DNA of 64,000 nucleotides from a bacterium (GCA_024223715.1 JAAEOA010000015.1:5500-69499), one strand, 5' to 3'; positions 2,357 through 63,864 are shown, counted from the stretch's first letter. Made by a program: numbers and translations. The notes: generated by a model from the letters alone, not told the origin.

Positions 2357-2758
2357 GACATCTCCTTCATCTTGTTGGCCTTCAATCGAAAGCCACATTG
2401 GGGTTCGATACTCTGGGCCATTGAATTTTCAATCTTCCCCACCCGAAGATCATATACCTTCTGTTAAATGATTATCAACCAGAAAGCTCATCACAACGTG
2501 TTGTTATTAAATTGATTAGGGTTGTCAAAATTTATTTGAATGAAATTTCCAAGGAAAAAAACATGACTGGGAATGATGCGAGTTCATTAAGTTATTTATT
2601 TAGTATGTCATACGATTGTCATGGAATTTTCTCGTGTTTGCTGGACAAATAGTAAAACAGGACTCCAGTGGCATTCGGCAGGGATGAATTTGATTTTGTG
2701 GAATTGAATGCACATTTGCAATGAGCCCGTTCCCGGAAGGTTTCAACTTAAAACTCTT

Positions 2759-35497: not shown

Positions 35498-36679
35498 ATG
35501 AATATTTTACCCCAATACCGCCCGGATCAATCCGCCAAAACAGTCGATCGTCAATTGAAGTCAGCACTCAAAATAAAAGAAGCTGCCCATCAATGTTCTT
35601 TGGATTGGTTTGGAGAAATCTATAATCGAAAACTATTCCAGGATCTTGGTTATGGATCAGTGAATCAGTATGCCCGAGAAGAGCTGGGTTTCAGCAATTC
35701 AAAAATCGGGCATTTTGTTACCCTGACCAAAAAGTTGGAAAAACTGCCGCAGCTGAAAAATTCCCTCAGCAAGGGTGAGTTGGGCTATACACTCGGCCGT
35801 GTCCTGGTCGATGTGGTTGATGCCACCAACGAAAAACAGTGGTTGAATTTTGCGAAGAAAAACTCCCGGCGGAAAATTGAAAATGAAGTAAAAAAAGCCA
35901 AGGTTGAAGCAAAGGAAAAAGCCAAAAGGCAGCCCTCTTTTTTGCCCAAACCGAAAAGGGAACAACTCAAAGCCGTTTTGCCCGTCAAAGTGAATTTAGA
36001 AATGACTCCCACCCAGTTTGCCCGATATGAAAAATTGTGGGAACAGGCGAGGAATCACCGCAGCATTTCATCTGACAAAATTGAGGCTCTTTTAGAAATT
36101 ATGGAAGGGTTTTTGGAGGGGGGAAACGAAGAAAAGATCGCTCCCCGGGGAGCGATTTCCAAGCCCTCGACTCAAATCCACATTCACCATTGCCCGGAGT
36201 GTGAATCTTCAAAAGTCCAGACCAGCAAAGGGGAACTGGAAATCAGCCAGGCAGACTTTGAGCGGGCGCAATGTGATTGCCAAATTGAAGTTTCAAATGA
36301 GGTGGCTGATGGTGAACTTGACCGAAACTTGACTCCGTCAATCAAACGAAACAAAACCTCAATTCCGCCAGCAACCCGTCGCCAGGTCCTGGCCAACGCC
36401 CGCCACAAATGTGAAACGCCAGGCTGCGAAAATACACGTTTTCTGGAAATTCATCACATTATTCCACGTTCAGCAGGCGGAACCAACAACCTTGAAAATC
36501 TGAAGTGTTTATGCTCTGCGTGCCACAGTCTGGCTCATTTCCATGGTGCAGGTTTTAAGGTTGGGGAAAACGCTGCAACTTATCGTTGGGACGAAGGAAA
36601 CCATGGGCCTTGTTACCATTCTTATTTGCTCAGAGTCATGCGCCCGGTTTTGGTTCCGTCAGGAGTATCGAGCCTGTAA
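35498..36679 (+). CDS. HNH endonuclease domain protein
   Basis: 393-aa ORF. C-terminal HNH motif CETPGCENTRFLEIHHIIPRSAGGTNNLENLKCLCSACHSLAH. An upstream Cys cluster HHCPECES...CDC is present. The N-terminal ~200 aa are helical and Lys-rich. Confidence 0.75.
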   Translation: MNILPQYRPDQSAKTVDRQLKSALKIKEAAHQCSLDWFGEIYNRKLFQDLGYGSVNQYAREELGFSNSKIGHFVTLTKKLEKLPQLKNSLSKGELGYTLGRVLVDVVDATNEKQWLNFAKKNSRRKIENEVKKAKVEAKEKAKRQPSFLPKPKREQLKAVLPVKVNLEMTPTQFARYEKLWEQARNHRSISSDKIEALLEIMEGFLEGGNEEKIAPRGAISKPSTQIHIHHCPECESSKVQTSKGELEISQADFERAQCDCQIEVSNEVADGELDRNLTPSIKRNKTSIPPATRRQVLANARHKCETPGCENTRFLEIHHIIPRSAGGTNNLENLKCLCSACHSLAHFHGAGFKVGENAATYRWDEGNHGPCYHSYLLRVMRPVLVPSGVSSL

Positions 36680-48040: not shown

Positions 48041-48463
48041 TTGAAACCTCAGTTTTTTGCTCTACTGACCGCCGCTGCCTGGGGCATTGGTGGCTATTTT
48101 GAGAAAAAAGGTCTGCATCTGGGCAACCTGCCCCCTCAAATGGGAATCACTATTCGCACGGCCGTGGCGTTGGTCATTCTTGGAGCGGTCAGTGCTCCTC
48201 ACTGGAAAACCGTCACCCAGGCTTCTCCCAAGGCGTTGGCCTATATGATTATTGGCGGTGGCGTGGTGGCCGGTTCTGTGGGGATGTTGTGTTTTTATAC
48301 AGCTCTAAAAGGTGCCCCGCTTTCGAAAATAATGCCCATTGCTTTCACGTCGCCGCTCTTTGGTGCTGTGTTGGCCATGACCCTCGGTGGAGAACCCATG
48401 ACCATAAAAACCGTCATTGGGATGCTGATGACCGTCGGTGGCATTATACTCTTAACAGTGTAA
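48041..48463 (+). CDS. Small EamA/DMT-type membrane protein (single EamA-like domain)
   Basis: 140-aa ORF (TTG start) with 4-5 TM. N-terminus FFALLTAAAWGIGGYFEKKG is typical of EamA-domain proteins. Confidence 0.65.
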   Translation: MKPQFFALLTAAAWGIGGYFEKKGLHLGNLPPQMGITIRTAVALVILGAVSAPHWKTVTQASPKALAYMIIGGGVVAGSVGMLCFYTALKGAPLSKIMPIAFTSPLFGAVLAMTLGGEPMTIKTVIGMLMTVGGIILLTV

Positions 48464-48483
48464 ATTCAAATTTTCCGAACAGG

Positions 48484-49254
48484 ATGACCATGTCTGATGC
48501 GCTCTCAGAAAAAAAAGACAGGCAATTTTTCCAAGGTTTTGCCTGGGCATTACCCGGGGTTTTTGCCGATCCTTTAAATGCCTGTCGATTCGAGTTGGGC
48601 GATACCCTGTACGAAAACAAAGAAGCCTATCACAGTGCTATTGGCGTGAAACCCGGCGGAAGGGCCATTCAGATTCTTGAGCCCGGACGAGGAATGGTGG
48701 GCAAAGCCAGCGATTCCGGTTTTGTCGATGCCTGGACTCAGGAAGTGGTTTTTGATCTGTACGACCTGAAAAATAATTCTTCTGAAAGGCAGACCTCCAC
48801 CCAAGGGCGCTTGTATTCATTTTTGTGGCATGGCGACGAAAAAATCCTTGGTCTGGATTCTTCTCCGCCCAAACTACCGCTCCAGGCCAACGGTTTGAAA
48901 AAGGTCCTTTCCGAAGTTGTTCCCTTCTTTAAAACCGATCTTTTTGATGACTCTTCTTTGGTGCGTTTTTTGACTCCTTCCGACGCAGCTTCCGGTGTTT
49001 ATCGCGATAAGTTCCTGAAAATAAAAGTCCGCCTGGAAGAGGATTTTGAAACCACCGTGCAGGTGGTCCCGGCCAATGATTTAGGGTTGCAGGAACAATT
49101 TCTCCCCACAGTTCAAGCTGCTTGTTTTGAAATGAAAAACACCACTGAAGAAAAGGTGGAAAAAGCCCTGCGCAAGGTGCTTTACAAACCTTCTTCAAAC
49201 CGAAAAACCCAGGCTGATCGTTTCAGTCTGACACGCCACGGTCTACTTATTTAA
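48484..49254 (+). CDS. Hypothetical cytoplasmic protein
   Basis: The track ORF starts at 48289 inside the EamA gene. ATG 48484 (or 48490), just after the EamA stop, is the plausible start (256 aa). No recognised motifs. Confidence 0.5.
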   Translation: MTMSDALSEKKDRQFFQGFAWALPGVFADPLNACRFELGDTLYENKEAYHSAIGVKPGGRAIQILEPGRGMVGKASDSGFVDAWTQEVVFDLYDLKNNSSERQTSTQGRLYSFLWHGDEKILGLDSSPPKLPLQANGLKKVLSEVVPFFKTDLFDDSSLVRFLTPSDAASGVYRDKFLKIKVRLEEDFETTVQVVPANDLGLQEQFLPTVQAACFEMKNTTEEKVEKALRKVLYKPSSNRKTQADRFSLTRHGLLI

Positions 49255-49539: not shown

Positions 49540-50625
49540 ATGCTCGTTCAACAACATCGGCGACTACCTCTGGGGTGGGTCATCATGTTGGTCCTTCTGG
49601 CCTTGGGTTTAGGGTTAACCCCTGCCAAAGCTGCAGAACGGGTGCATCGATTTATCAAATTCACTATTCAGGACCCGGACGGCAATTTCTTTCCCATCGG
49701 TGAAGTAGAATTTTGCACCCCGGAGGGAAAATGCATTTATGCAGACATTGAAAAAGACTTTCCCGGTCATTTTGTTGTGCCCAGTGAAGAACTGGAGCGA
49801 GGCACCGCTTACAGTGTCCTCATTTACGACAAACAAGTGGCTGTGCACTACGAAATGAACAATTGGGTTTACCAACCCAAAGACTACGATCCAGGTTTCG
49901 ACCGCATGGTTGAGCTGGATAAATTTATGATTTACCCACGGTTTCATGGGACAGAAAACGGAGACATGGTTTTCCGCATCGATACAACGCTGAACCCTGA
50001 ATGGGCCTTGCGGAAAAATGTGTCTCAGTATGCGGGCCCAGACTCCACCAATGGATTCCCTGAACTTGTGGCCGGATTTAGTGTTCCGGTTATGCTCGGT
50101 GGGAATTTTACAACCAACCAGGATGCTCTGGGTGGTATCGATGACGTCAGGCCAGGCATTGGTCTTTCCGGCAGTTATCGCTTTGGTTACCCCCGGTATA
50201 TGCCGGAAATGGACAACTGGATTTTCTTCCATGAACTGACTGTTGCTTACCAGCAAAATCGATACGAAACCTGGGAAATCATGACTCCCGGTCGTCGCAG
50301 CGATGTGACTTTCCATCGACTGAAAGTTTCTTACGGTGTGGGGCAAATGAGCCAGTCTTTTGCCTCTCATTGGAGTGTGGGAGTGACTGCTGCCTTTGGC
50401 GGGGTTTATGACGGAACCACCATGCTCAAGTATTTGGACCGATCCTACAAACGACGGGGATTTGGTATCAAAGCCAGCTGGTTACAGCGAATGTTCCAGG
50501 TGGGCAGGGTCGATGTCGGCGCCAGTGGGCAATTGGAATTGATGTACTACTCCGGCGATACATCGGCCGATGATTACTGGTTCGGAATGGCCCCTTCAGT
50601 CTCCATCGGATTGGTGGTGTTCTGA
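49540..50625 (+). CDS. Putative outer-membrane beta-barrel protein with N-terminal Ig/carboxypeptidase-regulatory-like domain
   Basis: 361 aa with signal peptide ...LGLTPAKAAE. The C-terminal half has alternating hydrophobic beta-strand patterns and ends ...SIGLVVF (terminal Phe). TGATG overlap with the next gene. Confidence 0.45.
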   Translation: MLVQQHRRLPLGWVIMLVLLALGLGLTPAKAAERVHRFIKFTIQDPDGNFFPIGEVEFCTPEGKCIYADIEKDFPGHFVVPSEELERGTAYSVLIYDKQVAVHYEMNNWVYQPKDYDPGFDRMVELDKFMIYPRFHGTENGDMVFRIDTTLNPEWALRKNVSQYAGPDSTNGFPELVAGFSVPVMLGGNFTTNQDALGGIDDVRPGIGLSGSYRFGYPRYMPEMDNWIFFHELTVAYQQNRYETWEIMTPGRRSDVTFHRLKVSYGVGQMSQSFASHWSVGVTAAFGGVYDGTTMLKYLDRSYKRRGFGIKASWLQRMFQVGRVDVGASGQLELMYYSGDTSADDYWFGMAPSVSIGLVVF

Positions 50626-53600
50626 TGGGTAAGAGCAATCACCTTATTCAATTATACCTGTTGGCATTGCTCATGTTGGTCCTGGTGTCCAGTTCTGGTT
50701 GCGACCGTCGCGACAACGACTGGGATTCATTCAATCCGAACCTGAAGCAAATCAGCGTGGTTATTGACACCTTGCAAGTAAGCGAAGAGGGGCAGTCCCA
50801 AACTTTTGAAGTGAGTCTGGGCATGGTTCCGGCCGATACGGTTTGGGTCTATGCTTTTGAAACCAACAGTCAAGTCATTCTGGATCCTGATACCCTGATC
50901 TTTGTTCCGGTGGACGACAGTTGGGCCGCTCCCCAGGCTGTAACCGTTCAGGCCATCGATGATGCTATTTCTGAGGGTTTGCACGAAGATATAGTCACGG
51001 TGGTCAGCTATTCCAGAGACAGTGAATATGGAAATCAGTCGGGTGAAGGCCCGGTGGTTGTTGCCATTGCGGATAATGATTCAGTGGCGGTACTCATTTC
51101 CGAAACCAGCCTGACCCTGGTTGAGTCTGAGGCGGGAGTGGTTCGCGAAACTTACCGAATTCGCTTGAATAGTGAACCTGTGGCCAACGTGACGGTCAAT
51201 GTTGCTGAAACTCCGGAAGAAGCCAGTTTGCATATTGAACCATCTACGGTGATTTTTGACTCTACAAATTGGAATGTTTGGCAGGATGTAGTTCTTTGGA
51301 TCGAGCTGGATGAAATTGACAACGATGATCTGACTTTAACTCTGGAACATAGCGCCACTTCGTTGGATGAAAATTACGACGCCACTCTGGAAATTCCCTC
51401 TTTGATTGTCACCACATTCGACTTCACATTGCCACCAATTGCCCGGTTGCATTTCCTGGCCGGAAGTGTGCTGTACGAAAATGACATTTTGGCCCAGGTC
51501 CCGGTACAAATCAGTTTGGACCGTCCCAGCATGGATCCGGTGGTTGTTCATTTGTTTAGCGTTGACGGCACGGCTACCGGTAATGCCGATTTTGTGACCG
51601 TTGACCAAACCGTAACTTTTGTCCCGGGTGATCCCTTGCTTCAACAGTTATCCGTCAGCGTGATCGACGATGTTGAAATCGAGCCCATGGAAAGTTTCGA
51701 GCTTTTTATTGAGCCCGTGGATCATGTCATAATTGGAGAAGACGACCGATTGGCTATAGATGTTGTGGACAACGATTTAACACCACTGACTTTGTCTGTC
51801 ACCAACGCCAGTGAAGACTCCGGGTCGGCAGAATTTATTGTCAGTATTCCTTTCGCCGAAACCGTGCCTATTAGTTTTACTTTCTCCACCAGCGATGGCA
51901 CTGCCCTTGCCGGTGAAGACTACGAAACCCATAACCAGACTTATGTTCTGGAAGCCGGGGTAACTCAACGCAGCATTTCCGTAGTTCTGGAAGCCGATGC
52001 TTACCATGAACCGGATGAAACCTTCAGTGCCAGCCTGAGTGCCATAAGTAACAACGCAGGATGGGCCGACGCGCCCACAGTTTGCACCATTTTAAATGAC
52101 GACCCACAGACCGTTACCATGAACGATATTCAGTTCAATGAAGATGCCGGCAATGCCACTTTTACTCTTGAATTGCTGGCCCCATACAACATGGACGTCA
52201 ACCTGCAGGCCACCACTCACAATGGTGATGGAATTATCCCTGCGGCGGGCCAACTGGATGCCCTTGGCGGATCAGATTTTACCAGTTTCACAGACGAACC
52301 CTGGGTCATTCCCGCCGGCTCCACCAGCGCCACTTTCGATGTGCCCATTAACGATGAAACCGATGCCGAATCGTTGCAGGAATATTTCCGCCTCGAAATA
52401 ACCAGTTCCGACCAACCCTTATTTCTCGGGACCCTTGCCACATGCACACTTGTGGACAACGACCAGCCATGCCTGATGGTCTCCGATGTCTTCGGTATTG
52501 AATCGGACCCGGATATTACTTTCACCGTCAAACTGCTGGATGAAAACCTCGACCCCATTACCAGCAGCGCCGATATTTCATTTCTGGTGGAAACCGCCGA
52601 CCAAACAGCTGAAGCAACCATCGATTATTCGCCCGTTTCCCAAACCGTGACTATTGCTGCGGGGCAAGACAGCATCGATATTCCGGTAGTCTTATTGGAC
52701 GACATTCATGATGACGATAACGAGACGTTTGTTCTTACGTTGTCTGAAATGATTAACGCAGAAGGTAGCTGTGGAACCGACGATGCGTTCTGTACTCTGG
52801 CCGATGACGAATTCCCCAGCTTGAATTTGCAGTCAGCGATTGTACGTCTGAATGAGGGTTCGGTTTGGGAGTTCACGGTTCTTCTTACCACCCCAAGGCA
52901 GGACTCAACAACTTACGACCTGGATTTGCTGGCAGGAACCTCTCAAGGCGAAGGCCTGGATTACAGCTTTGCAGACATTGGCACCCACACTATTAATGCC
53001 ATGGAAACTGAAGTTACTTTCACCGTGCCGTTCCTGGATGACCAGTTGGCCGATGAAGATGACGAAGTCATATGGGCCAACATTTCCAATGCCAATGTGG
53101 CCCTCGGAGTTGTTGATCTGGAAAGCACCATTGTTGATGCTCCTGAATTGTCCATTGGCTCGGCTGCTGGCGATGAAGGCGAAACTGTATTATTCGATGT
53201 TTTCCTCGATGCGCCAAGCACCGCTGACATTCAATTCAATCTGCAGTTTGCCAACGACACAGCCACCATGGGTGCTGACTTTGACAATACTGCCACCGGT
53301 CCTTATACCTTCCTTGCAGGCGAGACGGCCACCACTGTTCCTGTTGAATTATACAGCGGCGATGGGGGCGACGCTGCCACGGAAGTCTTTGTTATCACCA
53401 TTGTCTCGGCCACAAATGCCACCGTCAGTGCCAATAACAGTGGCCTGGGAACTATTACCGACATGGACCCACCTGAATTAAGTTGGGCCGCCGATGCCAT
53501 CGGCCTCGAAGGCGAAGATGTCGAGTTCACTGTGAACCTGAGCTGGTCCAGCGAAGTGGAAGTTGAGTTTAACGTCAATTATTTTGATGGCACCGCCGCT

Positions 53601-54143
53601 CGCGCTGGAATTGATTACGATGATTCTTTTGCCGGTCCTTTTGTCGTCCCAGCGGGCGCAACCACCTTCATGGTCTCAGTTCCTGCAGTTGCTGATGGCG
53701 GACCAGAACTGACTTATGAGGACTTCACTATCATGTTGCACACTCCGGTAAATGCGGTATTGGGTATGCCAATAAGCGCTACCGGCTATGTGCAGGATGC
53801 CGACCAACCAGAGCTGACAATTCCTTTGGGCGCAACAGCTTTTGAAGGAAATTCTCTTGTCTTTACTGTTCACCTGAGTGAGCAAACCATTGTACCGGTA
53901 TTCTTCCAGCTGGAATACGATATCGGCTCAACCCAGGGAATCGCCGACTTCTTCCCACCGGGCACTTCGGTATTATCCATGATGCCAGGTACGGTCGATA
54001 CAACCATCACCATCATTACTGTGGAAGATGCTGTGCATGAGAATCAGGAAGCATTCATTCTCAGGCTGGCAGCCGATCCGGTGAACTGTGTGCTTGGCTC
54101 TCCGTTTGAAAATGTCGGAGTTATTAATGACGATGATCCTTGA
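50625..54143 (+). CDS. Large lipoprotein with ~10 Calx-beta-like repeats
   Basis: 1172 aa with a lipobox (LVSSSGC). ~105-aa repeats recur with Calx-beta-type acidic motifs: AIDDAISEG, VIDDVEIEPMESFELF, LLDDIHDDDNETFVLTL, PFLDDQLADEDDE. Each ends in (I/V)xDND/NDD-type motifs: IADNDS, VVDNDL, ILNDDP, LVDNDQ, VINDDDP. Confidence 0.7.
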   Translation: MGKSNHLIQLYLLALLMLVLVSSSGCDRRDNDWDSFNPNLKQISVVIDTLQVSEEGQSQTFEVSLGMVPADTVWVYAFETNSQVILDPDTLIFVPVDDSWAAPQAVTVQAIDDAISEGLHEDIVTVVSYSRDSEYGNQSGEGPVVVAIADNDSVAVLISETSLTLVESEAGVVRETYRIRLNSEPVANVTVNVAETPEEASLHIEPSTVIFDSTNWNVWQDVVLWIELDEIDNDDLTLTLEHSATSLDENYDATLEIPSLIVTTFDFTLPPIARLHFLAGSVLYENDILAQVPVQISLDRPSMDPVVVHLFSVDGTATGNADFVTVDQTVTFVPGDPLLQQLSVSVIDDVEIEPMESFELFIEPVDHVIIGEDDRLAIDVVDNDLTPLTLSVTNASEDSGSAEFIVSIPFAETVPISFTFSTSDGTALAGEDYETHNQTYVLEAGVTQRSISVVLEADAYHEPDETFSASLSAISNNAGWADAPTVCTILNDDPQTVTMNDIQFNEDAGNATFTLELLAPYNMDVNLQATTHNGDGIIPAAGQLDALGGSDFTSFTDEPWVIPAGSTSATFDVPINDETDAESLQEYFRLEITSSDQPLFLGTLATCTLVDNDQPCLMVSDVFGIESDPDITFTVKLLDENLDPITSSADISFLVETADQTAEATIDYSPVSQTVTIAAGQDSIDIPVVLLDDIHDDDNETFVLTLSEMINAEGSCGTDDAFCTLADDEFPSLNLQSAIVRLNEGSVWEFTVLLTTPRQDSTTYDLDLLAGTSQGEGLDYSFADIGTHTINAMETEVTFTVPFLDDQLADEDDEVIWANISNANVALGVVDLESTIVDAPELSIGSAAGDEGETVLFDVFLDAPSTADIQFNLQFANDTATMGADFDNTATGPYTFLAGETATTVPVELYSGDGGDAATEVFVITIVSATNATVSANNSGLGTITDMDPPELSWAADAIGLEGEDVEFTVNLSWSSEVEVEFNVNYFDGTAARAGIDYDDSFAGPFVVPAGATTFMVSVPAVADGGPELTYEDFTIMLHTPVNAVLGMPISATGYVQDADQPELTIPLGATAFEGNSLVFTVHLSEQTIVPVFFQLEYDIGSTQGIADFFPPGTSVLSMMPGTVDTTITIITVEDAVHENQEAFILRLAADPVNCVLGSPFENVGVINDDDP

Positions 54144-54779: not shown

Positions 54780-55355
54780 CTACCGGTAAAGGACTTTAAG
54801 CTGAGACCAGCTGGTTTGCTGCACAGCAACCGGCGGTGAATCGTTAAACCCTATTTCACGGATTTCCAGACGCTGGCTAGGGTTCAGAGTGAGCACTACC
54901 AAGTCCACTCTTTTGACATTCAGAACTTGATCAAATTCATAAATACCAGGTGCCATGGATCCCAAAGGTCCGGTCAGAACTTCAGTACTGCCCAGCGAAA
55001 CATTGTCAGCATCAAAGAAATCAAGACGGAAGTCGCGAATACCCTCAGCCAGGACATTAATATCGTTCCACAATACAAAGTCGTCCAGATCTGAGGCTGT
55101 GGTCAAGTCCAGTCTGATGGTTCCGACCATGCCAGGCACGGCAGCAAAACCATTAAACCATACAGCCGGATCGATGATGCCATCACAAATCTGGTCAATA
55201 GTGAAGCCAGCTCCGGAGTTGGGAATGGTGGTGGAGGCGGTAATTTGGGCCGGGCCAAATATTTCAGCAGCTGATGCTGGTTGTATTAAGAAAAGCAGGG
55301 CAGAGGTTAAAATGATGAGCGTTTGGATTTTGGTTGAAAAACTGTTGGGTAGCAT
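54780..55355 (-). CDS. Secreted hypothetical protein (jelly-roll/discoidin-like?) with a short C-terminal SWSQLKVLYR motif
   Basis: 191 aa with signal peptide ...IQPASAAE. The body is rich in beta-strand pattern, and the terminal motif is QQTSWSQLKVLYR. Confidence 0.55.
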   Translation of the reverse strand: MLPNSFSTKIQTLIILTSALLFLIQPASAAEIFGPAQITASTTIPNSGAGFTIDQICDGIIDPAVWFNGFAAVPGMVGTIRLDLTTASDLDDFVLWNDINVLAEGIRDFRLDFFDADNVSLGSTEVLTGPLGSMAPGIYEFDQVLNVKRVDLVVLTLNPSQRLEIREIGFNDSPPVAVQQTSWSQLKVLYR

Positions 55356-55519
55356 GATGTGGCTCCTTGGTACTGTGTTTTGGGTCGTGATTCAAATTAA
55401 GTATATGATAAATTCATAGAAGAATGGGTTTAATATGTTCAAAACAAACAAAATACGCCATATGACGTATTTTGGGTTACGTCAGGGTTTTGGCTAATTC
55501 AATTGAGAAACCGTTGAAG

Positions 55520-56023
55520 TCACTTTCCCAGAAGTTCTTTTTTAATATAGGGGTTGGTCAGGTTTTCCCCGCGAAGCATTTTTCGATACATCTCATCAAA
55601 AACGATGCGATCTTCCGCTTGGGAATAATAAGCACCAAAGCCATAATTCATGGGGGTTCTATCTGTTTTTGAATACCAGGCATTTCGAGCATCGATCCAT
55701 TCATTGGTATCCCGGGAATAAACCCACAGCACCATCTCGTCCCGGTTTTTATTGTCTTCCAGCCAAAGGGCCAGGCATCCAACGTCGTCAAAAAACCAGG
55801 TTTTTCCATCTGTTGCAACAGCTTGGGCAGAGTCTTTGAGTCGATCCAGCAACATTCCACATTGAGTATCCTGATAGTGGTCAATAATAATTTCAACGGG
55901 TTCGCGAGTTTCATTGCCTATATAAACCGTTAGGTACTTTACCTGTTGAGCCCGGCTGATAACCAGAAGGGCAATGGTTGCAACGAGCAAAACGGTGACA
56001 AAAACCGGGACAAGTTTTTTCAT
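55520..56023 (-). CDS. Membrane-anchored NosL-like protein
   Basis: The track ORF starts at 56251. Met77 (ATG 56023) forms an ATGA overlap with the upstream gene and gives MKKLVPVFVTVLLVATIALLVI (anchor). NosL-like motifs: DTQCGMLL...WFFDDVGCLALW, and a later PMNYGFGAY region. Confidence 0.6.
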   Translation of the reverse strand: MKKLVPVFVTVLLVATIALLVISRAQQVKYLTVYIGNETREPVEIIIDHYQDTQCGMLLDRLKDSAQAVATDGKTWFFDDVGCLALWLEDNKNRDEMVLWVYSRDTNEWIDARNAWYSKTDRTPMNYGFGAYYSQAEDRIVFDEMYRKMLRGENLTNPYIKKELLGK

Positions 56024-56985
56024 TGCAACAGGACTCCGTTTCGGAGGAAAAAGATGCCAACGAAAAGACTGCAGGTCAGAAAAAACAGAGTGTGAAAAAT
56101 TACAGCCCATTTTTGTGTGAAACTGACATCGTGGCCCAGCAACAGTCGTAAAACAAACCCGGCCACTCCAAAAAAGGTTCCAGCCAAAAGAGAGCCCCAA
56201 ATCAGGTAGCCCACATAATAGTACTCTTTCTGAAGCATACAGAAAGGACATTTATGAGTGGGTAGCTGGTAAACATAAGTTCCGAAGAAATAGACTACAG
56301 CAAAATATCCGAAGTACAAGAAGGCAGAACTGGCTAGCAAATGAAGCAAGTTATAGCGCTTCAATCCCAAAACCACCACCAGTGAATACAACAGGAAAAA
56401 GAGCATCAACAAAGTATTGATGTTTAACCCGAGGGGTAGGGGATTGCCCTCGCCCACGGCTCCGTAAATTCCGGAACAACACTGCACTGGTGTTAGGGTG
56501 CTAATGTTCACGAAAAACAACCAGTCCAGGACCGTTTCCAGAACCACTGCAACAAAAATCAAGAGAAAGAATTTCAATTTGGCTCGAAAATAAGGATGGT
56601 CTTCAGCCCCAAGATCTTCACGGTTGGCAAAAAGCCAGATTCCTGAAAGATACAGAACCACAATTTTCAAGACCATCAAGGCGGGACCAAACCCGTTGGA
56701 TTCAATGACACCCGCACCACACATTGCACCAGGAATAATTGTCGCTAAACCATCAATGGTATGACTGAAGAAAGGCAAAAGGAGGATTTTAAAAATCAGG
56801 GTTCCCAGGATAACCAAAACCACTAGATAGGCCCGCTTTTCCAGGGCGAACTGTGTTGTTGTGGTGGCAAAAAAATCCCAGCTTTTCAGGATAGTCAGGG
56901 TATTGACCAAAGCGACGGTTAGCAGAACCAGCAAAACGGCTTCCAGGAAAAGAAAAACAACCACTTCATTGGCCAGCAGGATCAT
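56020..56985 (-). CDS. Cys-rich polytopic (about 8 TM) membrane protein of unknown family
   Basis: 321 aa with about eight hydrophobic spans. Cys-containing loops: PGAMCGAGV, PVQCCSGIYG, HKCPFCML. ATGA overlaps at both ends. Confidence 0.6.
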   Translation of the reverse strand: MILLANEVVVFLFLEAVLLVLLTVALVNTLTILKSWDFFATTTTQFALEKRAYLVVLVILGTLIFKILLLPFFSHTIDGLATIIPGAMCGAGVIESNGFGPALMVLKIVVLYLSGIWLFANREDLGAEDHPYFRAKLKFFLLIFVAVVLETVLDWLFFVNISTLTPVQCCSGIYGAVGEGNPLPLGLNINTLLMLFFLLYSLVVVLGLKRYNLLHLLASSAFLYFGYFAVVYFFGTYVYQLPTHKCPFCMLQKEYYYVGYLIWGSLLAGTFFGVAGFVLRLLLGHDVSFTQKWAVIFHTLFFLTCSLFVGIFFLRNGVLLQ

Positions 56986-57656
56986 GAAAGGGTGATCCTT
57001 CCTGCTTCCAGGCTGATTACCCGATCCACCAGATTCAATCCTTCAAAAATAGGATCATGAGTGGCAATAATTACGGTCTTGCCCAGAAACTTCAGATTGC
57101 CGAGGATTTCAATAAAGGCATCGGAGTTGGCCCGATCCAAGTTGGCCGTTGGTTCATCGCATAGAATGATTTTGGCGTCGTTCACCAGAGCCCGGGCAAT
57201 GGCAGCCCTTTGTTTTTCCCCACCACTGAGGTCGCGCACACTTTGGGTGGCTTTGTGTTGAATGTTGGCCAATTTCATAGCCCGGTCCACATGGGTGTAA
57301 ATTTCCTTTTGAGGTAGGCCAGTGGGAATGAGAGGCAGGGCTACATTTTCGGCAACATTAAATTCTTCAAATAAATTGAAGGCCTGAAAAATGAAACCAA
57401 TAGTTTGAGCACGAAAAGCCGAGGCATGCATGTCGGGAAGTTTGGCAATGGGGCGGCCGTCCACTTTTATCTGCCCACTGGAAGGTTTTTGCAAAGCACC
57501 AATAATGGAAAGTAAAGTGCTTTTGCCACTGCCGCTGACACCCTTGAGAATAGCCAACTCACCAGCCCGGACTTCAAAGCCAATATCATACAGGGATTGA
57601 AATTCAGCAGGGGTGCCTGGACGATGGATTTTTTGGATTCCCTTGAGCACAATCAT
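56982..57656 (-). CDS. ABC transporter ATP-binding protein (MacB/LolD-type)
   Basis: Start chosen at Met14 (ATG 57656, ATGA overlap with the permease stop). Walker A GVSGSGKST, signature LSGGEKQR, Walker B IILCDEPT, H-loop ATHD. Confidence 0.9.
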   Translation of the reverse strand: MIVLKGIQKIHRPGTPAEFQSLYDIGFEVRAGELAILKGVSGSGKSTLLSIIGALQKPSSGQIKVDGRPIAKLPDMHASAFRAQTIGFIFQAFNLFEEFNVAENVALPLIPTGLPQKEIYTHVDRAMKLANIQHKATQSVRDLSGGEKQRAAIARALVNDAKIILCDEPTANLDRANSDAFIEILGNLKFLGKTVIIATHDPIFEGLNLVDRVISLEAGRITLS

Positions 57657-58837
57657 TTCATGGCCTCCACCGGTTCGGTAATGGCCACGCGCCAAACAGG
57701 AATCAGTACCGAAGCAATAAAGGGCACCATGTAAAAAAGAAATAACAGGCTGATCAATCCAAAATCGATACCCCTGCTTAAGGTGAAATTAACGGGCAAG
57801 TTCCCATTACCCAAAAATACGGCAATTAAACCGGGCGCCCCGAGGAAGAATACGTAGAAATAACTGAGCAGAATTCCCACCACAAAAGCGGTGCCGGCCA
57901 CAACTGCATTTTCCCAGACTTTCAGCGAAATGACGTCGCCAATGCCCCACCCCACGGCTCGTAAAATTCCGATTTGACGCCGATCAGGGCCAGTAATCAT
58001 AGAGTGCCGCTGATACAGAATAAGTACAAAAGTACTCAGGACTATCAAATACAGGAGCAGGAAAACTCCGCCTTTGTAGTTGAATAAATTGTCGAATGCA
58101 GTGGCTATTTCCTTTTTCTGAATCACCCGGATATCGAAATGCTGTTGAATCAGCTTGACCATAATGCTGTCGCCTTCAAGTTCGTTGGGAACATGAAGAA
58201 CAATGTCCGTGGCCTGGTCTTCGGCAATACCGAGAACCTGCCTGGCCAGGTCGATATCCATAACCACCATGTCATTGGTAAACAAATAACTGTCGGTGGG
58301 GAAGGTATCGAAAACTGTTAATTCAAGCCGCTGCTGATCAGGAGAAATGAAATCATATTTTCCATTGTAGTGATGGTTTTCCAGGAACTCCTGAACTCCA
58401 CGCCCGACAATCATGTTATTGCCGGCCAGAAATTTTTTGAGGTCAAGACCGTCCATCAAAGTTTGCAGATTCTCTGAAGCCTGGTTGTCGAAGGGATCGA
58501 TGCCCACAACTGTGAAGTATTGAGCGTTCTGAGTATGAAAATACCGCCCGAATACTCTGGGAACAGCCGAGTTGACACCCGCGATGGTACCGAAATCCTG
58601 AGCCCAGTCCACGGGCAGATCAACGGCTTTGCCGCCTCGGACTTTCTGTACGATAATATCGGCCTGCTGGTTTAATGTATGGCTCACATCTCGCCGAATT
58701 GCCGATGCCAGGAACATGACTGAACACAGCAAAGTGACAATAACCACGGCCATTAACATGACAGCCACATGCCGCGTGCGATGGCGATGCAGGGAAAGAA
58801 AAAGGAAATTCCAAGCGGCACTACTGAGCATAAACAA
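57653..58837 (-). CDS. FtsX/MacB-type ABC transporter permease
   Basis: 394 aa. TM1 (VAVMLMAVVIVTLLCSVMFLA), a ~220-aa periplasmic domain, then three C-terminal TMs with the FtsX-type loop QIGILRAVGW. Confidence 0.8.
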   Translation of the reverse strand: MFMLSSAAWNFLFLSLHRHRTRHVAVMLMAVVIVTLLCSVMFLASAIRRDVSHTLNQQADIIVQKVRGGKAVDLPVDWAQDFGTIAGVNSAVPRVFGRYFHTQNAQYFTVVGIDPFDNQASENLQTLMDGLDLKKFLAGNNMIVGRGVQEFLENHHYNGKYDFISPDQQRLELTVFDTFPTDSYLFTNDMVVMDIDLARQVLGIAEDQATDIVLHVPNELEGDSIMVKLIQQHFDIRVIQKKEIATAFDNLFNYKGGVFLLLYLIVLSTFVLILYQRHSMITGPDRRQIGILRAVGWGIGDVISLKVWENAVVAGTAFVVGILLSYFYVFFLGAPGLIAVFLGNGNLPVNFTLSRGIDFGLISLLFLFYMVPFIASVLIPVWRVAITEPVEAMK

Positions 58838-59075
58838 AATCCATAGTACTGAGTGACCTCATTCCAGGATACAGAATGCAGGCGTTTTCGTTCAGCAATC
58901 GCCAGCGTGATTCAAAGTAGGGGACAGCCAAAGCCGGGCCTGGTAAATCGCAGAATGTTAGACGATCGATTTCACTGGTTTTGGCTCTTTGCCGGGAACC
59001 ATCCACAAGAACGGCCCCCAGGCTAAGAGCAATAATAACCAAAACGGCCAAATAGGATTTAGTCAATCCGGTCAT
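58821..59075 (-). CDS. Small single-TM protein (hypothetical)
   Basis: 84-aa ORF with N-terminal TM YLAVLVIIALSLGAVLV. It starts 5 nt after the upstream stop and overlaps the permease start by 11-17 nt. This tight coupling is the main support. Confidence 0.4.
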   Translation of the reverse strand: MTGLTKSYLAVLVIIALSLGAVLVDGSRQRAKTSEIDRLTFCDLPGPALAVPYFESRWRLLNENACILYPGMRSLSTMDFVYAQ

Positions 59076-59080
59076 GACAA

Positions 59081-60178
59081 TTATTTGTCCAATCCGTGAA
59101 CCAGATCCTTGGTGATTTCACTGAAAATCACAATGGAGTTTCCTGAGTGATCCTGACTGAAAGTTTCTGCTTCGGCTTTCGACCGGAAAGGAATTAATTC
59201 GTTACCCATTGGGCCATAAACATTGGAGCCAAGCACGTACCAGGCTTCACTCGCGTTCATGGCTTCCAAACTGTAATAATCTGATACGTTAATATTGGCC
59301 ATTTGGTCTTTTTTCAGTTCCACATGGTAACGTTTGGGCTCGAAATAGAACTTCATCATATCCTTGACGCCATCGAAATAATAATGGGTGCCTTCGGTGC
59401 TGATGATTTCCGCTGTCCAGTCCGGATAAAGAGCTGAGTACATGCCACATACTGGACACTTGGCTTTTTCGGGAACCACGATTTTAGCCTTATTGCCGTT
59501 GGTGGAGTTATTCTGGCTTACCAGGAAAATAGCCACAGCCTGGTATTGGCCATCTTTGAGTGTTCCGCAAGTTTGATGAGTGCTCAAGTGAGTTTTGGCT
59601 TCGGCAATGGTTTGAAACATGGGCAGGTCTGAACCGTTACACAGGGTCTCGAATATTTTCCGACCTTTTTCGGCCATAGACTGGCGTTTTTTGGCGATCA
59701 TCTGGTTCTCTTTGGCCAAGGCCTTGCGCGCAATGGTCTGAGCCTCGTCAAAGGATAAAATCTTCCCTCCATTTTTTTCCTGGAAAGCTCCTGCTTGGGT
59801 TTTATCGGCAAAAGCATATTTACTCGTCATGGTCATGGTGCCTTTGACATTACTGCCAACTACATAAAAAGCACTGTGGGCGGGAATGAATTTTAAAGAG
59901 GTGAAATCCACTACCCGAGCCTGATTTTTGACTACCTCAGATTCCGGGTTCGCATCGCAGAAACAATGCATGGAGCAATATTGATGTTCAGTATTGGCAT
60001 GAGATGTTTTGTAGAATTTGACGAGGTTCATGCCACAGTTGGGACAATAGAGTTTTCCCGGGCCGGATTGCAACAGCTGAGCTTGGTCCGCAGGAACAGT
60101 CTGAGGCATTTGGGCCAAACATACAGAGGTCCAGATCAATGTTAGCAACAAGGCTTTAAAAAAGGTCGTGGTTTTCAT
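59081..60178 (-). CDS. Periplasmic TRASH-motif plus double NosL-like domain protein
   Basis: 365 aa with signal peptide ...SVCLAQ. C45-x2-C48-x19-C68-x3-C72 (CPNCGM...YCSMHC) fits the TRASH pattern. First NosL-like module: YVVGSNVKGTMTM...GGKILSFDE. Second CxxCGM (AKCPVCGMYS) has a NosL-like module: YYFDGVKDMM...YVLGSNVYGPMGNELIPF...FSEI. Confidence 0.65.
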   Translation of the reverse strand: MKTTTFFKALLLTLIWTSVCLAQMPQTVPADQAQLLQSGPGKLYCPNCGMNLVKFYKTSHANTEHQYCSMHCFCDANPESEVVKNQARVVDFTSLKFIPAHSAFYVVGSNVKGTMTMTSKYAFADKTQAGAFQEKNGGKILSFDEAQTIARKALAKENQMIAKKRQSMAEKGRKIFETLCNGSDLPMFQTIAEAKTHLSTHQTCGTLKDGQYQAVAIFLVSQNNSTNGNKAKIVVPEKAKCPVCGMYSALYPDWTAEIISTEGTHYYFDGVKDMMKFYFEPKRYHVELKKDQMANINVSDYYSLEAMNASEAWYVLGSNVYGPMGNELIPFRSKAEAETFSQDHSGNSIVIFSEITKDLVHGLDK

Positions 60179-60377
60179 GGAAATCCCCTTGGTTTGGTAG
60201 CCTTTTGTTCTTGTAACCTATTTTGTCGTCACGTGTTAGGCAACTTAATCCCAAAATTGGACAAAGACAACCACATAGTGGAAATTTTTTTGGTCACTTG
60301 CGGCTCATCCAAAATAATTCTATGTTAAAACTCTTGGAAAAGACCGCTCATGGAGGAGCAAACCTCAAATTCCCGAG

Positions 60378-61670
60378 ATGGAATTTAAGAGGGCGGTTGG
60401 AATGGATGAATTGTTGCATGACCCTGAAATTGGGCAATTGCGGCGGTTTTCCCTTGAGTTAAAGCAGCAGGTGGTCGGACAGCCGGAAGCCATCGACAAA
60501 CTCACAGACAGCCTGAGCCGGCTTATTGCTGGAATCCATGACCCACACCGCCCCCTGTTGGCCATGTTGTTCATGGGGCCAACGGGAGTTGGCAAGACTG
60601 AAACTGTCCGGGCCCTGGCCCGGATTCTTTTTGGCCATCAGCGTGCCTTCACCCGCATCAACTGCCAGGAATTCACCTCCCATTTTAATCTCTCCAAACT
60701 GTTGGGATCGCCACCCGGATACGTTGGAGGCGATATCAAACCCCTTGTCAGTCAGGAGAATCTGGACCGTCATTTCATAACGGCTTTGGCAGAAGGAAGC
60801 GGTCTAGTCTGTCAAACAGATACTCTTATGGGGGAAGTTTTAGGAGGAGGTGGTCAGTCGCCATTGTCTCTGGTCCTCTTTGATGAAGTGGAAAAAGCTC
60901 ATCCCAAACTTTGGGATTTGTTATTGGGGGTACTGGAAGATGGAACCCTGGTTTTGGGCAATAATGAAGAAAGCGATTTCCGGAATTCCATTATTATTCT
61001 GACTTCCAACGTGGGCAGTTCGGCCATGCGAACTCTGTTAAGTCATGAAGGAATTGGCTTCGATTCTGGCAGCGAAGTAACTTTGATAGATATGCAAAAG
61101 TCGGCAATCCATGCCGCGCGAAAGATTTTCCCTGTCGAATTTTTAAACCGTTTTGATCAGCTGGTGACCTTTGCTCCATTAAAGGACCATCATCTGTTAC
61201 GAATTCTGGACTTGCAGTTGTCGCGATTTCACCAGCGGACTCTGCAGGCCCGATGCCCGTTTTTGGTGCATCTGACTCCCAATGCAAAATTCAAATTGAT
61301 CAGACATGAGGCTGACCCGGCACTTGGGGCACGTCCTTTGAACCGGGCTCTGGATCAACTTGTGGTTACACCATTATCTCACTTTGTGGTGCAGGGAAAA
61401 GTAAATCCTGGAGACCTGATTGTTGTTGATTGCAATAAATTGGGAATGCGGTATTACCGCCGTCGGGGGGGTGTCGCAGATTCCGATGAAAGCGCTGGAG
61501 GAGATCTGCCCCGGGTCAAATGGGCCGTGGCGGAAATTAGCACTGTTGACGACGGAGGGGAGAAGGAGGACATAACCGAAGAAGTGAAAAGGGTCGCTGC
61601 ACAGGCTGCTGCAGGTACCAGCGCAACAGAGGGTCGGCAGCCCCGGCATGACGGCGAGGAAGGAGGCTGA
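60378..61670 (+). CDS. Stand-alone Clp/Hsp100 D2-type AAA+ ATPase (single AAA module)
   Basis: 430 aa. VVGQPEAIDKL, Walker A GPTGVGKTE, pore loop PPGYVGG, Walker B LVLFDEVEKAHP, sensor-1 IILTSNVG, EFLNRFDQLVTFAPL (D2-small), sensor-2 GARPLNRAL. No N-domain, D1 or M-domain. Acidic low-complexity tail. Confidence 0.85.
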   Translation: MEFKRAVGMDELLHDPEIGQLRRFSLELKQQVVGQPEAIDKLTDSLSRLIAGIHDPHRPLLAMLFMGPTGVGKTETVRALARILFGHQRAFTRINCQEFTSHFNLSKLLGSPPGYVGGDIKPLVSQENLDRHFITALAEGSGLVCQTDTLMGEVLGGGGQSPLSLVLFDEVEKAHPKLWDLLLGVLEDGTLVLGNNEESDFRNSIIILTSNVGSSAMRTLLSHEGIGFDSGSEVTLIDMQKSAIHAARKIFPVEFLNRFDQLVTFAPLKDHHLLRILDLQLSRFHQRTLQARCPFLVHLTPNAKFKLIRHEADPALGARPLNRALDQLVVTPLSHFVVQGKVNPGDLIVVDCNKLGMRYYRRRGGVADSDESAGGDLPRVKWAVAEISTVDDGGEKEDITEEVKRVAAQAAAGTSATEGRQPRHDGEEGG

Positions 61671-61761: not shown

Positions 61762-63864
61762 ATGAAGGAAATTATAATACAGAAAATTGGAGCCAGGGTT
61801 AGTGGATTGTACCGGGGGCAAGGGTTTCCCGGCATAATCAATGACCTGCCGGGCGATGCCAGCCTGGCAAAGTTCAAAGAGGAAATTCGGCTGGATGTGG
61901 ATGGCAGTTCTCCACAAATGATGGCCAGCGGGGTCATACGAAGTGGTCTGCGCCACAAGGTTCAGTGGATTGCAAGGCTCGAGCCCGAAGAGTTTAATCG
62001 GTGGAAAGGGACCATTTGGAACATGACCGGTGATCAGGACTACATGCCATGGCGCAGTATCAACATGACTGTGAACAACGTAACCGAAGACCGTGACCGA
62101 TGCCTGACTGTACAGTATCTGGGGCATGGAATTCCAAGCAGAACCAGAGACTATAATTTGACTCAAAAACACTTCAATCGCCTGGATGTGGTGGTTGACA
62201 GTACCGGGAATATTAATCCGGTTACGGTGCTGGATCTTGAGAACTTCAACAATCAGTCGGAAATTCTGGCCAGTAACTTCCAAAGCATCAGCACGGTCAT
62301 GGAAAGAGCAGGGCTTCGCTCGCGACTGACCATCAATCGCGATGCACAATTGGAGGGCCCTGATGATGGAACCTGGTCAACGGTTGAAATTGTTGATGCC
62401 TTCCGAACCTGGGCTACTCAGCAGAAAAATGAAAACACTCCCCGGGCCTGGGTGCTGAATATTGGTCGGCATGAAGAAGGTCCTGAAATCAGTTCATTGG
62501 TGATGAACAACATTGGCGGCCGCAAACTCAGTGGCATATCTGTGATGTACGATTCATTTTTGACTAAACCAACAGTAGGGAAAACCGAGTTCATTGATTC
62601 GAGCAACCGCAGACTTTTCATGTCCACCATTCATGGTCTGGGCGATGCTCTGGGCCTTGGCCACTCCTGGCAAAAGCGGGGTCTGGGAATTGACGGAATT
62701 CCTGGAATTCCCCTGGAAAATGAAAGAGAAGCACGCAGCTTCATGAACGACCCAATTCGTGTCGCCGGTGGTGAAAACCAGTTCTTCAGCGATTTCAATT
62801 TCAACTTCAGCGATGCTGAATTGATGATAATGAGGCACGGCACCGCTTTCCCTGGCCCCGTACACAGTCTGGAATGGTACCAACGAAACGGGAACATTGA
62901 TGTCTCCCATGACACATCAGAAAATCTGGATCTGCAGTTCCGTTTGAATAGGCAGCAATCGGTGGTTCAGTTCATGGAACCGGTGATCATGGAAATGAAA
63001 CTGACCAATCGTGGCCAGACACCCATCTTGATTGACAATGACATTCTGGAGAACCAAAACCAGATGACGATTATCATTAACCGCAACGGAACCATGGTGC
63101 GTCAAATGAAGCCCATGTTCCACATGCACCGTCAATTCCAGAAACAAGTGCTCATGCCAGGGGAAGTTATCTTCAATGAAATGATGATTTCCGTGGGCCA
63201 GGACGGTTGGCTGATTGACGAAGCAGGCCTCTATACCATTGAAGGTGTGCTGCATCTGGACGATGGCGATCTGGTGGCCACACCCTTGATCATGAGAGTA
63301 GAACCAGCGCGCAGTTATGAGGAAGAGGTTTTTGCTCAGGACTTCCTGACTGTGGAAATGGCTTCCCTTATTTCCGCCGGAGGAAGTCTGCTGCTTTCCA
63401 ACTGCAATAATATTCTGAAAGAAATCACTGACAAATTCAGCAACCGACAGGTGGCAAAGCATGCTCATCGTTTGCTTGGGTTGACTATGGTTCGAGATTA
63501 CAAATTGTTGCTGGTGGACAAGAAACCAGCGGACAACAAAACGATCTCACAAATTGGCGGGCACCTTGAAGTGGTGGCAGCCGATATGAACAATGGTCTG
63601 GAGCACCTGTTGCTGGCGGCTGAAAACGACAACGACCGGGCGGTCAATACTTTCGGTCATATTGGTTACGTGAAACTGGTGAACCAAATCTGTGATCTAT
63701 TGATTGAGCAGGATCGGGTGAATGTTGCTTTGAATCTGCAGAAGAATTTGAAAGATACAATGGTTAACCGGAAGATAAAGACAACTGCGATTGATGAAAT
63801 CACAACCAACATTTCCCGCATCAAGGCGCGCACATCAAAGAAGGAGAAAAAGGCCAAAAATTAG
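61762..63864 (+). CDS. Large cytoplasmic hypothetical protein with degenerate metzincin-like motif
   Basis: 700-aa ORF with GGAGG upstream and no signal peptide. It contains HGLGDALGLGH (aa 291-301), which matches HExxHxxGxxH at H1, G8 and H11 with E2->G and H5->D. SFMNDP lies 27 aa later (Met-turn-like). Lys-rich C-terminal tail. Confidence 0.6.
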   Translation: MKEIIIQKIGARVSGLYRGQGFPGIINDLPGDASLAKFKEEIRLDVDGSSPQMMASGVIRSGLRHKVQWIARLEPEEFNRWKGTIWNMTGDQDYMPWRSINMTVNNVTEDRDRCLTVQYLGHGIPSRTRDYNLTQKHFNRLDVVVDSTGNINPVTVLDLENFNNQSEILASNFQSISTVMERAGLRSRLTINRDAQLEGPDDGTWSTVEIVDAFRTWATQQKNENTPRAWVLNIGRHEEGPEISSLVMNNIGGRKLSGISVMYDSFLTKPTVGKTEFIDSSNRRLFMSTIHGLGDALGLGHSWQKRGLGIDGIPGIPLENEREARSFMNDPIRVAGGENQFFSDFNFNFSDAELMIMRHGTAFPGPVHSLEWYQRNGNIDVSHDTSENLDLQFRLNRQQSVVQFMEPVIMEMKLTNRGQTPILIDNDILENQNQMTIIINRNGTMVRQMKPMFHMHRQFQKQVLMPGEVIFNEMMISVGQDGWLIDEAGLYTIEGVLHLDDGDLVATPLIMRVEPARSYEEEVFAQDFLTVEMASLISAGGSLLLSNCNNILKEITDKFSNRQVAKHAHRLLGLTMVRDYKLLLVDKKPADNKTISQIGGHLEVVAADMNNGLEHLLLAAENDNDRAVNTFGHIGYVKLVNQICDLLIEQDRVNVALNLQKNLKDTMVNRKIKTTAIDEITTNISRIKARTSKKEKKAKN

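Follow-up and report, generated by a model that had tools for sequence, protein, structure and literature searches.

The 64,000-nucleotide stretch of bacterial DNA analysed here (GCA_024223715.1, JAAEOA010000015.1:5500-69499; in the following, the window) carries on its minus strand, at positions 55520-60178, a six-gene operon (g1 to g6) for two NosL-type proteins, a small membrane protein, an FtsX-type ATP-binding cassette (ABC) permease with its ATPase and a Cys-rich protein with eight transmembrane (TM) helices, here called C8. We propose, with evenly balanced confidence, that the operon encodes an ATP-driven machine of the cell envelope that traffics Cu(I) and supplies periplasmic cuproenzymes. 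More tentatively, and as a possibility that we would not yet back, permease, ATPase and C8 may constitute a new functional class of type VII ABC systems, a ‘copper loading station’, in which C8, with a fold not found in the PDB, would provide a periplasmic Cys4(His/Met) site for Cu(I) and the ABC would hand the metal to NosL-type chaperones.

An earlier note on this DNA had described six tightly coupled reading frames, and their junctions agree with this description. The first gene, g1 (59081..60178), codes for a secreted protein of 365 amino acids (aa) with a signal peptide and two NosL modules; as read from the sequence, a gap of 5 nt separates its stop at 59081 from the ATG of g2 at 59075. 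The stop of g2 (58821..59075; 84 aa, one N-terminal TM helix) at 58821 lies within g3 (57653..58831), the gene of a type VII ABC permease of the FtsX/LolC/MacB fold. This overlap amounts to 11 nt if g3 starts at the ATG at 58831, which we assume because the public gene call has 392 aa, and to 17 nt if it starts at the TTG at 58837. ATGA overlaps connect g3 with the ATPase gene g4 (56982..57656; 224 aa) at 57653-57656, g4 with the C8 gene g5 (56020..56985; 321 aa) at 56982-56985 and g5 with g6 (55520..56023; 167 aa, a membrane-anchored protein with a divergent NosL-type domain) at 56020-56023. The longest-frame starts of g4 and g6 were trimmed to yield these lengths, with which the public calls on an identical 5.9-kb contig agree. 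The operon ends at a terminator-like hairpin on the same strand (55449..55474; 11-bp stem and T-run), 46 nt past the g6 stop, and no DsbD_2 gene follows g6 in the window; the next minus-strand reading frame past the hairpin (54780-55355) has no Pfam match and is not kept in related loci. Upstream of g1, a divergent intergenic region of 199 nt (60179..60377) is the presumed promoter site. A promoter and operator scan of this region gave promoter-like matches that were as frequent in shuffled sequence, and short inverted repeats that were unconvincing. The tight junctions, the hairpin after g6 and the divergent region before g1 make the six genes look like one transcription unit.

The nature of the presumed cargo is suggested by the NosL-type proteins. 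The g1 protein matches Pfam NosL (PF05573) in two stretches (E 2.4e-44; 151 bits at a cut-off of 24), located approximately at residues 40-150 and 236-360; the two modules are an internal repeat (BLASTP, E 4e-8), separated by a linker domain of about 80 residues with two conserved cysteines (C180 and C204), and module 2 aligns to the solved NosL chains 7og7 and 7osf. While two NosL-like modules had thus been correctly recognised in the earlier note, the TRASH motif that it also reported for g1 did not hold. A separate TRASH/YHS domain was rejected, as the sole YHS match (E 0.014; 15.9 bits at a cut-off of 30.3) falls on NosL module 2, and the N-terminal CPNCGM...CSMHC sequence is the metal-binding head of NosL module 1. 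The g6 protein, likewise predicted to be NosL-like and membrane-anchored, remains below the threshold of the Pfam profile (E 1.4e-3; 19.4 bits at a cut-off of 24), but is related to the NosL of nos clusters by hhalign (91% probability, E 1e-6) and to module 2 of g1 by BLASTP (E 1e-4). Neither protein is a lipoprotein: the signal peptide of g1 ends in ...TSVCLA/QM and has no lipobox, and the N-terminal TM anchor of g6 looks uncleaved. The two are thus atypical members of the NosL family, g1 by its two modules and g6 by its divergence.

In SdNosL, Cu(I) is bound by the strictly conserved residues Cys62, Met64 and Met145, and a structural Zn by Cys59, Cys88 and Asp92, which are variable and swapped in some clade II NosL proteins (PMC8457098). 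Equivalents of the Cu(I) triad are present in module 1 of g1 (C48/M50/M115), in module 2 (C244/M246/M324) and in g6 (C55/M57/M125), and are 95-100% conserved within their families. In detail, C45/C48/M50/C68/H71/C72/M115 and C241/C244/M246/M324 are conserved in 20 homologues of g1, and in 62 homologues of g6, which carries the motifs QC55GM57, FFDDxGC83 and TPM125xYGF, C55, M57 and M125 are conserved to 100% and C83 to 90%. At the Zn-ligand positions, module 1 of g1 has C45, C68 and H71/C72, and module 2 has C241 and Asp/Asp at the positions of C88 and D92; g6 lacks the first Cys and shows the swapped D...C order (FFDDxGC) reported for clade II NosL (PMC8457098). Since the Cys-Met-Met triad is kept in all three modules, we assume that the cargo is Cu(I) or the chemically similar Ag(I), for which the conservation of the triad is good evidence at the level of sequence; together with copper-related neighbours in related loci, this is in line with the thiophilic metal that the earlier note had suggested. 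A different thiophilic cargo has also to be considered, namely Zn(II), sulfide or persulfide for the [4Cu:2S] CuZ centre, or another soft metal such as Hg or Cd. The Zn bound by SdNosL and the extra Cys and His residues of g1 module 1 (C68, H71, C72) would be compatible with it, as would the sulfur chemistry on which the hosts live and the presence of modules in nos clusters, where a supply of sulfide is also needed. However, the residues that are strictly conserved are those of the Cu(I) triad and not the Zn ligands, and we consider such a cargo very unlikely.

The motifs MCGAG, QCCSG and HKCPFCM, which had been noticed in g5 together with eight TM helices, are present in C8, and an AlphaFold2 (AF2) model (predicted local distance difference test score, pLDDT, 87.5; predicted template modelling score 0.85) has eight TM helices. 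No Pfam match was found for C8 and 13 diverse relatives up to E 10, and no NCBIfam match for C8 (E 0.1). A sequence-profile search found no relative in the PDB, and a Foldseek comparison of the model with 350,000 PDB chains returned generic helical bundles only (G-protein-coupled receptors, cytochrome oxidase subunit III), with a best E of 1.1. The fold was compared with the PDB; to families without a solved structure (CopD, DUF2318), from which C8 is set apart by sequence, it may still be similar. As judged from these searches, C8 belongs to no described family. The C8 family itself is large, with 988 clusters at 50% identity found at E <= 1e-3 and 708 at E <= 1e-10 in an exhaustive profile search. 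Its cysteines are located in three loops, PGAMC89GAG, C169C170S and PTH244xC246PFC249M. Over branches of only 25-31% identity M88 and C89 (GAMC), C169 and C170 (SCCG) and C246 (CPF) are invariant, and H244 is conserved in at least 90% across branches. All three loops share one side of the membrane with both termini. The number of Lys and Arg residues is 3.7-3.9 on this side and 6.4-9.1 on the opposite side, whose loops are much shorter; as this bias favours the opposite side as inside, the Cys loops of the model probably face the periplasm. The only two beta-bridge residues of the model are S171 and H244, so that the CC loop would touch the HxC loop.

The same protein invites an explanation by thiol chemistry. 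In analogy to a proposal for FetABCDEF of C. jejuni, C8, a DsbD_2 or Redoxin partner and the ABC could bring reducing power to the periplasm, either to keep cysteines of chaperones or enzymes reduced or to convert Cu(II) to Cu(I), and the NosL proteins would then be substrates of the relay. The CPFC motif of C8, the frequent thiol-redox partner described below and the parallel in architecture to FetABCDEF (PMC10783030) speak for such a relay. However, several distant members have Asp instead of the last Cys of the CPFC motif, C249, whereas C89, C169, C170 and C246 do not vary. This replacement and the invariant vicinal CC pair favour, as far as sequence conservation can tell, metal ligands over a CxxC redox pair. 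Moreover, C8 has neither a DUF2318 nor another redox-family signature, the operon in the window includes no thioredoxin or DsbD gene, and type VII ABCs have no known way of moving electrons. A thiol or electron relay is therefore in our opinion distinctly unlikely. C8 also has conserved charged residues in or near its TM helices (K107, D/E150, E49, D124, K136), which together with the number of eight TM helices, as in CopD, could point to a variant of the other-cargo explanation, an import of copper to the cytoplasm via C8 that would resemble CopC/CopD and draw its energy from the ABC. C8 has no match to Pfam CopD, however, and no type VII ABC is known to power import across a membrane; we judge this variant, too, to be very unlikely.

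For the ABC part of the operon the earlier prediction of a MacB/FtsX-type rather than an ABC-2 permease, together with an ATPase, was confirmed. The g3 protein matches Pfam FtsX (E 1e-8), and its AF2 model (pLDDT 76.8) has four TM helices, with a mixed alpha/beta periplasmic domain of about 180 residues (59-238) between TM1 and TM2 and the three other TM helices thereafter. Foldseek aligns the whole model, periplasmic domain included, to LolE, LolC and MacB (E 8e-15 to 1e-9, probability 1.00), and further full-length matches were to HrtB, BceB and YbbP. By sequence, g3 is remote from solved proteins, the closest being YtrF (E 0.003). The g4 protein matches ABC_tran (E 5e-33) and has intact Walker A (GVSGSGKST), signature (LSGGEKQR), Walker B (IILCDEPT) and H-loop (ATHD) motifs; its best NCBIfam matches are FtsE, LolD and DevA, all under the equivalog cut-offs. 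By permease and nucleotide-binding domain alike, g3 and g4 are an ABC system of the LolCDE/MacB type (type VII). All characterised systems of this type work, to our knowledge, mechanically on the periplasmic side and do not move their substrate across the membrane. The small g2 protein has no Pfam or NCBIfam match. It features a conserved C-terminal motif (E..R...YP.M.....MDFVY) and is present at the same position in at least 44 of the 57 genome loci introduced below. In Desulfobacterota-type loci (L090-L169, for instance L108 4017-4322) the gap between NosL and FtsX genes holds a strongly conserved 101-aa protein of no family (LGLTDL..TEARYTRHP...PFMDHPG..EHFP), and a relation between this protein and g2 is doubtful (hhalign 48%).

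About 170 related loci were fetched, from Krumholzibacteriota, Campylobacterota, Desulfobacterota and Geobacteraceae; counts for genome loci refer to 57 loci with enough upstream sequence and counts for metagenome loci to 29. Close relatives of C8 occur in 460 species of a set based on GTDB, in one branch alone, and the best 80 of these 460 are Krumholzibacteriota and mostly Campylobacterota (Sulfurimonas, Sulfurovum, Sulfurospirillum and Arcobacter relatives). The window itself is 80-85% identical to metagenome-assembled genomes (MAGs) of Krumholzibacteriia. Dozens of genomes from two phyla retain the gene order at 45-85% identity, which is far more than chance would produce. What is constant is the FtsX-ABC-C8 core, whose genes abut and which is found in 57 of 57 genome loci and in 26-28 of 29 metagenome loci. 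The obligatory unit of the module is thus FtsX-ABC-C8, to which NosL genes, g6 and the small protein are often, but not always, added. NosL-family genes lie inside the module in 38/57, 23/29 and 7/7 loci. A thiol-redox gene, either DsbD_2 or AhpC/Redoxin, is a common seventh member (24/57 and 20/29 loci); in 23 of the 57 loci a DsbD_2 gene (PF13386, E 1e-52, with conserved HCxxMC and PC motifs) follows g6. In a distant branch formed by Desulfobacterota, Geobacteraceae and SAR324 the order is Redoxin - NosL - 101-aa protein - FtsX - ABC - C8, with NosL in 23/29 and an AhpC/Redoxin-type protein in 19/29 loci.

Some further features of these loci may be added. In a comparison that included the operon of the window, the modules of Krumholzibacteriota (L004 and L005, Krumholzibacteriia) and of a Sulfurimonadaceae MAG (L006) are 51-62% identical at equal gene order; across two phyla this suggests, from sequence comparison, that the whole cassette moved horizontally between Krumholzibacteriota and Sulfurimonadaceae. 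Five metagenomic loci (L097, L106, L109, L133, L137) carry, just upstream of NosL-FtsX-ABC-C8 and approximately 3-7 kb upstream of C8, an additional ABC ATPase gene together with another FtsX gene that is encoded on the opposite strand. Two conserved upstream genes of Aliarcobacter, one TPR_21-like and one for a lipoprotein with a weak WD40-type match, were rejected as parts of the module; a conserved gene on the opposite strand separates them from it, and they seem to represent inherited local synteny of one lineage.

A connection to copper is provided by the genomic neighbourhood. Eleven of 93 informative loci are embedded in or abut clade II nos clusters (L012, L015, L050, L053, L056, L059, L060, L082, L085, L087 and L089), in at least five different arrangements, and this is far above the approximately 0.3% that we estimate for random placement beside nos. 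In the first nine of them, including L053 from the complete genome of Sulfurovum sp. CS9, the module has nos genes (NosD, G, H, F, Y, L) as its immediate neighbours. The other two belong to the distant branch and have the module inside the nos cluster: L087 shows the order NosD-F-Y-L - 111 aa - FtsX-ABC-C8-NosL - 163 aa - NosG-H, and L089 the order NosF-Y ... NosG-H - cytochrome c - NosL-NosL-FtsX-ABC-C8-NosL. The module was also noted in a Sulfurospirillum cavolei paper of 2016, as an unexplained ‘five-gene insertion’ inside nos (PMC4794192). In the literature within our reach, which did not extend to subscription-only papers, this passing mention is the only one; we found no functional study of the module and none that connects NosL with FtsX, MacB, LolC or a type VII ABC. 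The operon had indeed been taken for an uncharacterised one in the earlier note, which had also stressed the lack of nos genes, had considered that the operon might be an accessory arm of a nos locus and had asked for synteny elsewhere. The lack of nos genes holds for the window, in which no NosD, NosY, NosG or NosH homologue was detected by tblastn and by Pfam searches of 33 further window reading frames, but not in the sense of independence from nos. An accessory arm of nos would describe the 11 loci above but not most others, including that of the window, and synteny is found in dozens of genomes but not for the six genes as a fixed unit.

Other copper-related neighbours occur outside nos. 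An outer-membrane-like protein family of approximately 650 aa is encoded near the module in six loci (L001 15308-17209, L002 12845-14806, L056 12308-13906, L069 4219-6258, L072 4419-6413 and L077 821-2833) and not in the window. It has a plug-like N-terminus, one conserved CPNRM and, 165-210 residues further on, one HxM, and thereby resembles the CxxxM-HxM copper site of OprC/NosA, which in OprC is formed by C143/M147 and H323/M325 (PMC8610252). We regard this likeness of sequence motifs as a lead rather than as a classification. In Geobacteraceae the module is adjoined by CusA, by CusB with YHS/HMBD domains, by a Redoxin and by a Cu-oxidase_2 protein; the CusB of L088 is part of a separate divergent operon of the resistance-nodulation-division (RND) type. 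These latter neighbours could equally be seen as a sign of detoxification, in which the NosL modules and C8 would sequester toxic periplasmic Cu(I) or Ag(I) and the type VII ABC would expel the metal from periplasm or membrane towards efflux, as in HrtBA or MacB. Both structural relatives are extrusion devices, and the hosts are anaerobes, for which Cu(I) and Ag(I) would be abundant under anoxia. However, no MacA-type adaptor (HlyD/membrane fusion protein) or TolC-type duct (outer-membrane efflux protein) was present in the operon or its flanks at any inspected locus, no Cu-sensing regulator is located near the operon within the window, and the repeated insertion into nos maturation clusters as well as the OprC-like importer neighbour point to supply. 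Detoxification is for these reasons an unlikely explanation.

Taking up the reading as a Cu(I)-supplying machine again, we can outline how it might work. The Cys, His and Met residues of C8 would form a high-affinity thiolate site for Cu(I) on the periplasmic face, and ATP-driven motion of the periplasmic domain of the FtsX-type permease would force the transfer of Cu(I) between this site and the NosL modules, most likely in the direction that C8 unloads Cu(I) onto NosL. NosL would then pass the metal to periplasmic cuproenzymes or their assembly factors, that is to NosDFY/NosZ where present and otherwise to another client. In related loci, the DsbD_2 or Redoxin/TlpA-like partner may keep thiols reduced, and the OprC-like outer-membrane protein (CxxxM...HxM) may bring copper in. 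The action of the ABC is modelled here by analogy, on LolCDE and HrtBA for extraction and on NosDFY for the conformational gating of chaperone docking. The lineages that carry the module (sulfur-oxidising Campylobacterota, Desulfobacterota, Geobacteraceae and Krumholzibacteriota) suggest that it is adapted to anoxic, sulfidic habitats in which copper is scarce and present as Cu(I).

Several observations weigh against this reading. Approximately 88% of the loci, among them that of the window, lack nos genes within 10 kb, and Pfam analysis of the window reading frames and tblastn revealed no cuproenzyme gene in the 64 kb. Nineteen Aliarcobacter/Poseidonibacter-type loci consist of g2-FtsX-ABC-C8 only with no NosL nearby, and the core may thus work without NosL. 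The periplasmic domain of g3 has no conserved Cys or His and only M140 as a conserved candidate ligand. The topology of C8 is based on the positive-inside rule and the AF2 model, and the outer-membrane-like family has no Pfam match, including none to a TonB receptor. Which metal is moved, in which direction and to which client is in each case inferred.

Among known systems the module would, by analogy, work most like NosL-NosDFY of P. stutzeri and S. denitrificans. Both use NosL-fold chaperone modules with a Cys-Met-Met triad for Cu(I) and an ABC ATPase that probably serves as a periplasm-directed mechanotransducer and not as a transporter, and homologous modules are physically inside nos clusters in several lineages. 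Yet it does not qualify as a NosDFY system: the beta-helix protein NosD is missing, and the permease is of the FtsX/LolC type with four TM helices instead of an ABC-2 permease with six (NosY). The module furthermore adds an obligatory Cys-rich subunit with eight TM helices, and its NosL proteins are not lipoproteins, one of them being of two modules. A chaperone combined with an ABC mechanotransducer for periplasmic copper handling is thus a known plan, and it is the membrane component C8 that is uncharacterised.

With the type VII ABCs (LolCDE, MacAB-TolC, FtsEX-EnvC, HrtBA, YbbAP-TesA, YtrEF) the module shares the fold of the permease, the periplasmic domain and the type of nucleotide-binding domain, and a logic of extraction or mechanotransmission would be expected for it as well. 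It differs by its very low sequence similarity to the solved members, of which YtrF is the best match, and by the metallochaperone domains and the new membrane protein that it has in place of a MacA, TolC, LolA or EnvC-type partner; with neither membrane fusion protein nor outer-membrane duct, it is not a MacAB-TolC system. We know of no type VII system that has been linked to metal trafficking so far, apart from the uncharacterised FetBCD.

The latter is part of FetABCDEF, an accessory to the FetMP (Ftr1/P19) iron uptake system of C. jejuni and uropathogenic Escherichia coli, which consists of the Cys-rich FetA with eight TM helices and a YHS domain, the FtsX-type FetBC, the ATPase FetD and the thioredoxins FetEF, and whose function is also unknown (PMC10783030). 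Common to both are the FtsX-type ABC, a protein of eight TM helices with periplasmic Cys motifs, a YHS/TRASH-like metal-binding element and thiol-redox partners. C8, however, has neither DUF2318 nor a YHS domain fused to it, the module has a single permease gene where the Fet system has two, NosL proteins take the place of P19/Ftr1, and the redox partner is DsbD_2 or Redoxin, with none in the window. No Ftr1 or P19 was seen at any inspected locus. The module is therefore not a FetABCDEF system, and the resemblance is one of architecture only. CopC/CopD (YcnJ) and OprC/NosA offer a third comparison, as they too combine a periplasmic copper chaperone and an inner-membrane protein with eight TM helices, and some loci related to that of the window add an outer-membrane protein with an OprC-like CxxxM...HxM pattern. 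Compared by sequence, C8 differs from CopD in lacking the Pfam match, in having Cys instead of His ligands and in being accompanied by an ABC motor; the outer-membrane protein corresponding to OprC/NosA is not in the window.

The flanks of the operon in the window were considered as possible parts of the system and rejected: the ClpB-like ATPase, the 700-aa protein, a 191-aa secreted protein, DinB and the Calx-beta giant have no counterparts beside the module elsewhere. The ClpB-like ATPase (60378-61670, plus strand) is a truncated AAA_2 protein of 430 aa with PADLOC matches to the candidate-defence models PDC-M37B (E 1e-27) and DolB (E 7e-18); it is followed by the gene of the 700-aa protein (61762-63864, plus strand), which has no Pfam or PADLOC match. 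Lying divergent to the metal operon on its upstream side, both may form a two-gene defence pair. A 393-aa protein with a C-terminal HNH nuclease (35498-36679, plus strand) has weak PADLOC matches (DpdF, type IV REase, ZorE) that cover the HNH motif only. The Calx-beta giant is a secreted protein of 1172 aa made of Calx-beta repeats (50625-54143, plus strand) and is preceded by two reading frames (48289-49254 and 49540-50625), neither with a Pfam match. A multihaem cytochrome c (875-2398, minus strand) with a C-terminal match to cytochrome c552 (NrfA-like) may be a nitrite reductase or another respiratory reductase of this Krumholzibacteriota-like genome.

How Cu(I) reaches NosL and the assembly line of N2O reductase is an open question, as is the acquisition and routing of copper by anaerobes that live with sulfide. 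N2O reduction by clade II organisms is relevant to climate and known to be limited by copper. The module is abundant, with approximately 1000 C8 clusters at 50% identity and 460 species in one branch, and was repeatedly recruited to nos clusters. If it is indeed a loading station, it would provide the missing step by which NosL obtains Cu(I) for clade II N2O reductase and by which other periplasmic cuproenzymes are supplied in anoxic, sulfidic settings, and a role in metal trafficking would be added to the LolCDE/MacB class of ABC machines. Cultured and genetically tractable hosts exist among Sulfurospirillum, Sulfurimonas, Arcobacter relatives and Geobacter relatives. The presence of the module could also explain why the capacity to reduce N2O differs among Campylobacterota and Desulfobacterota.

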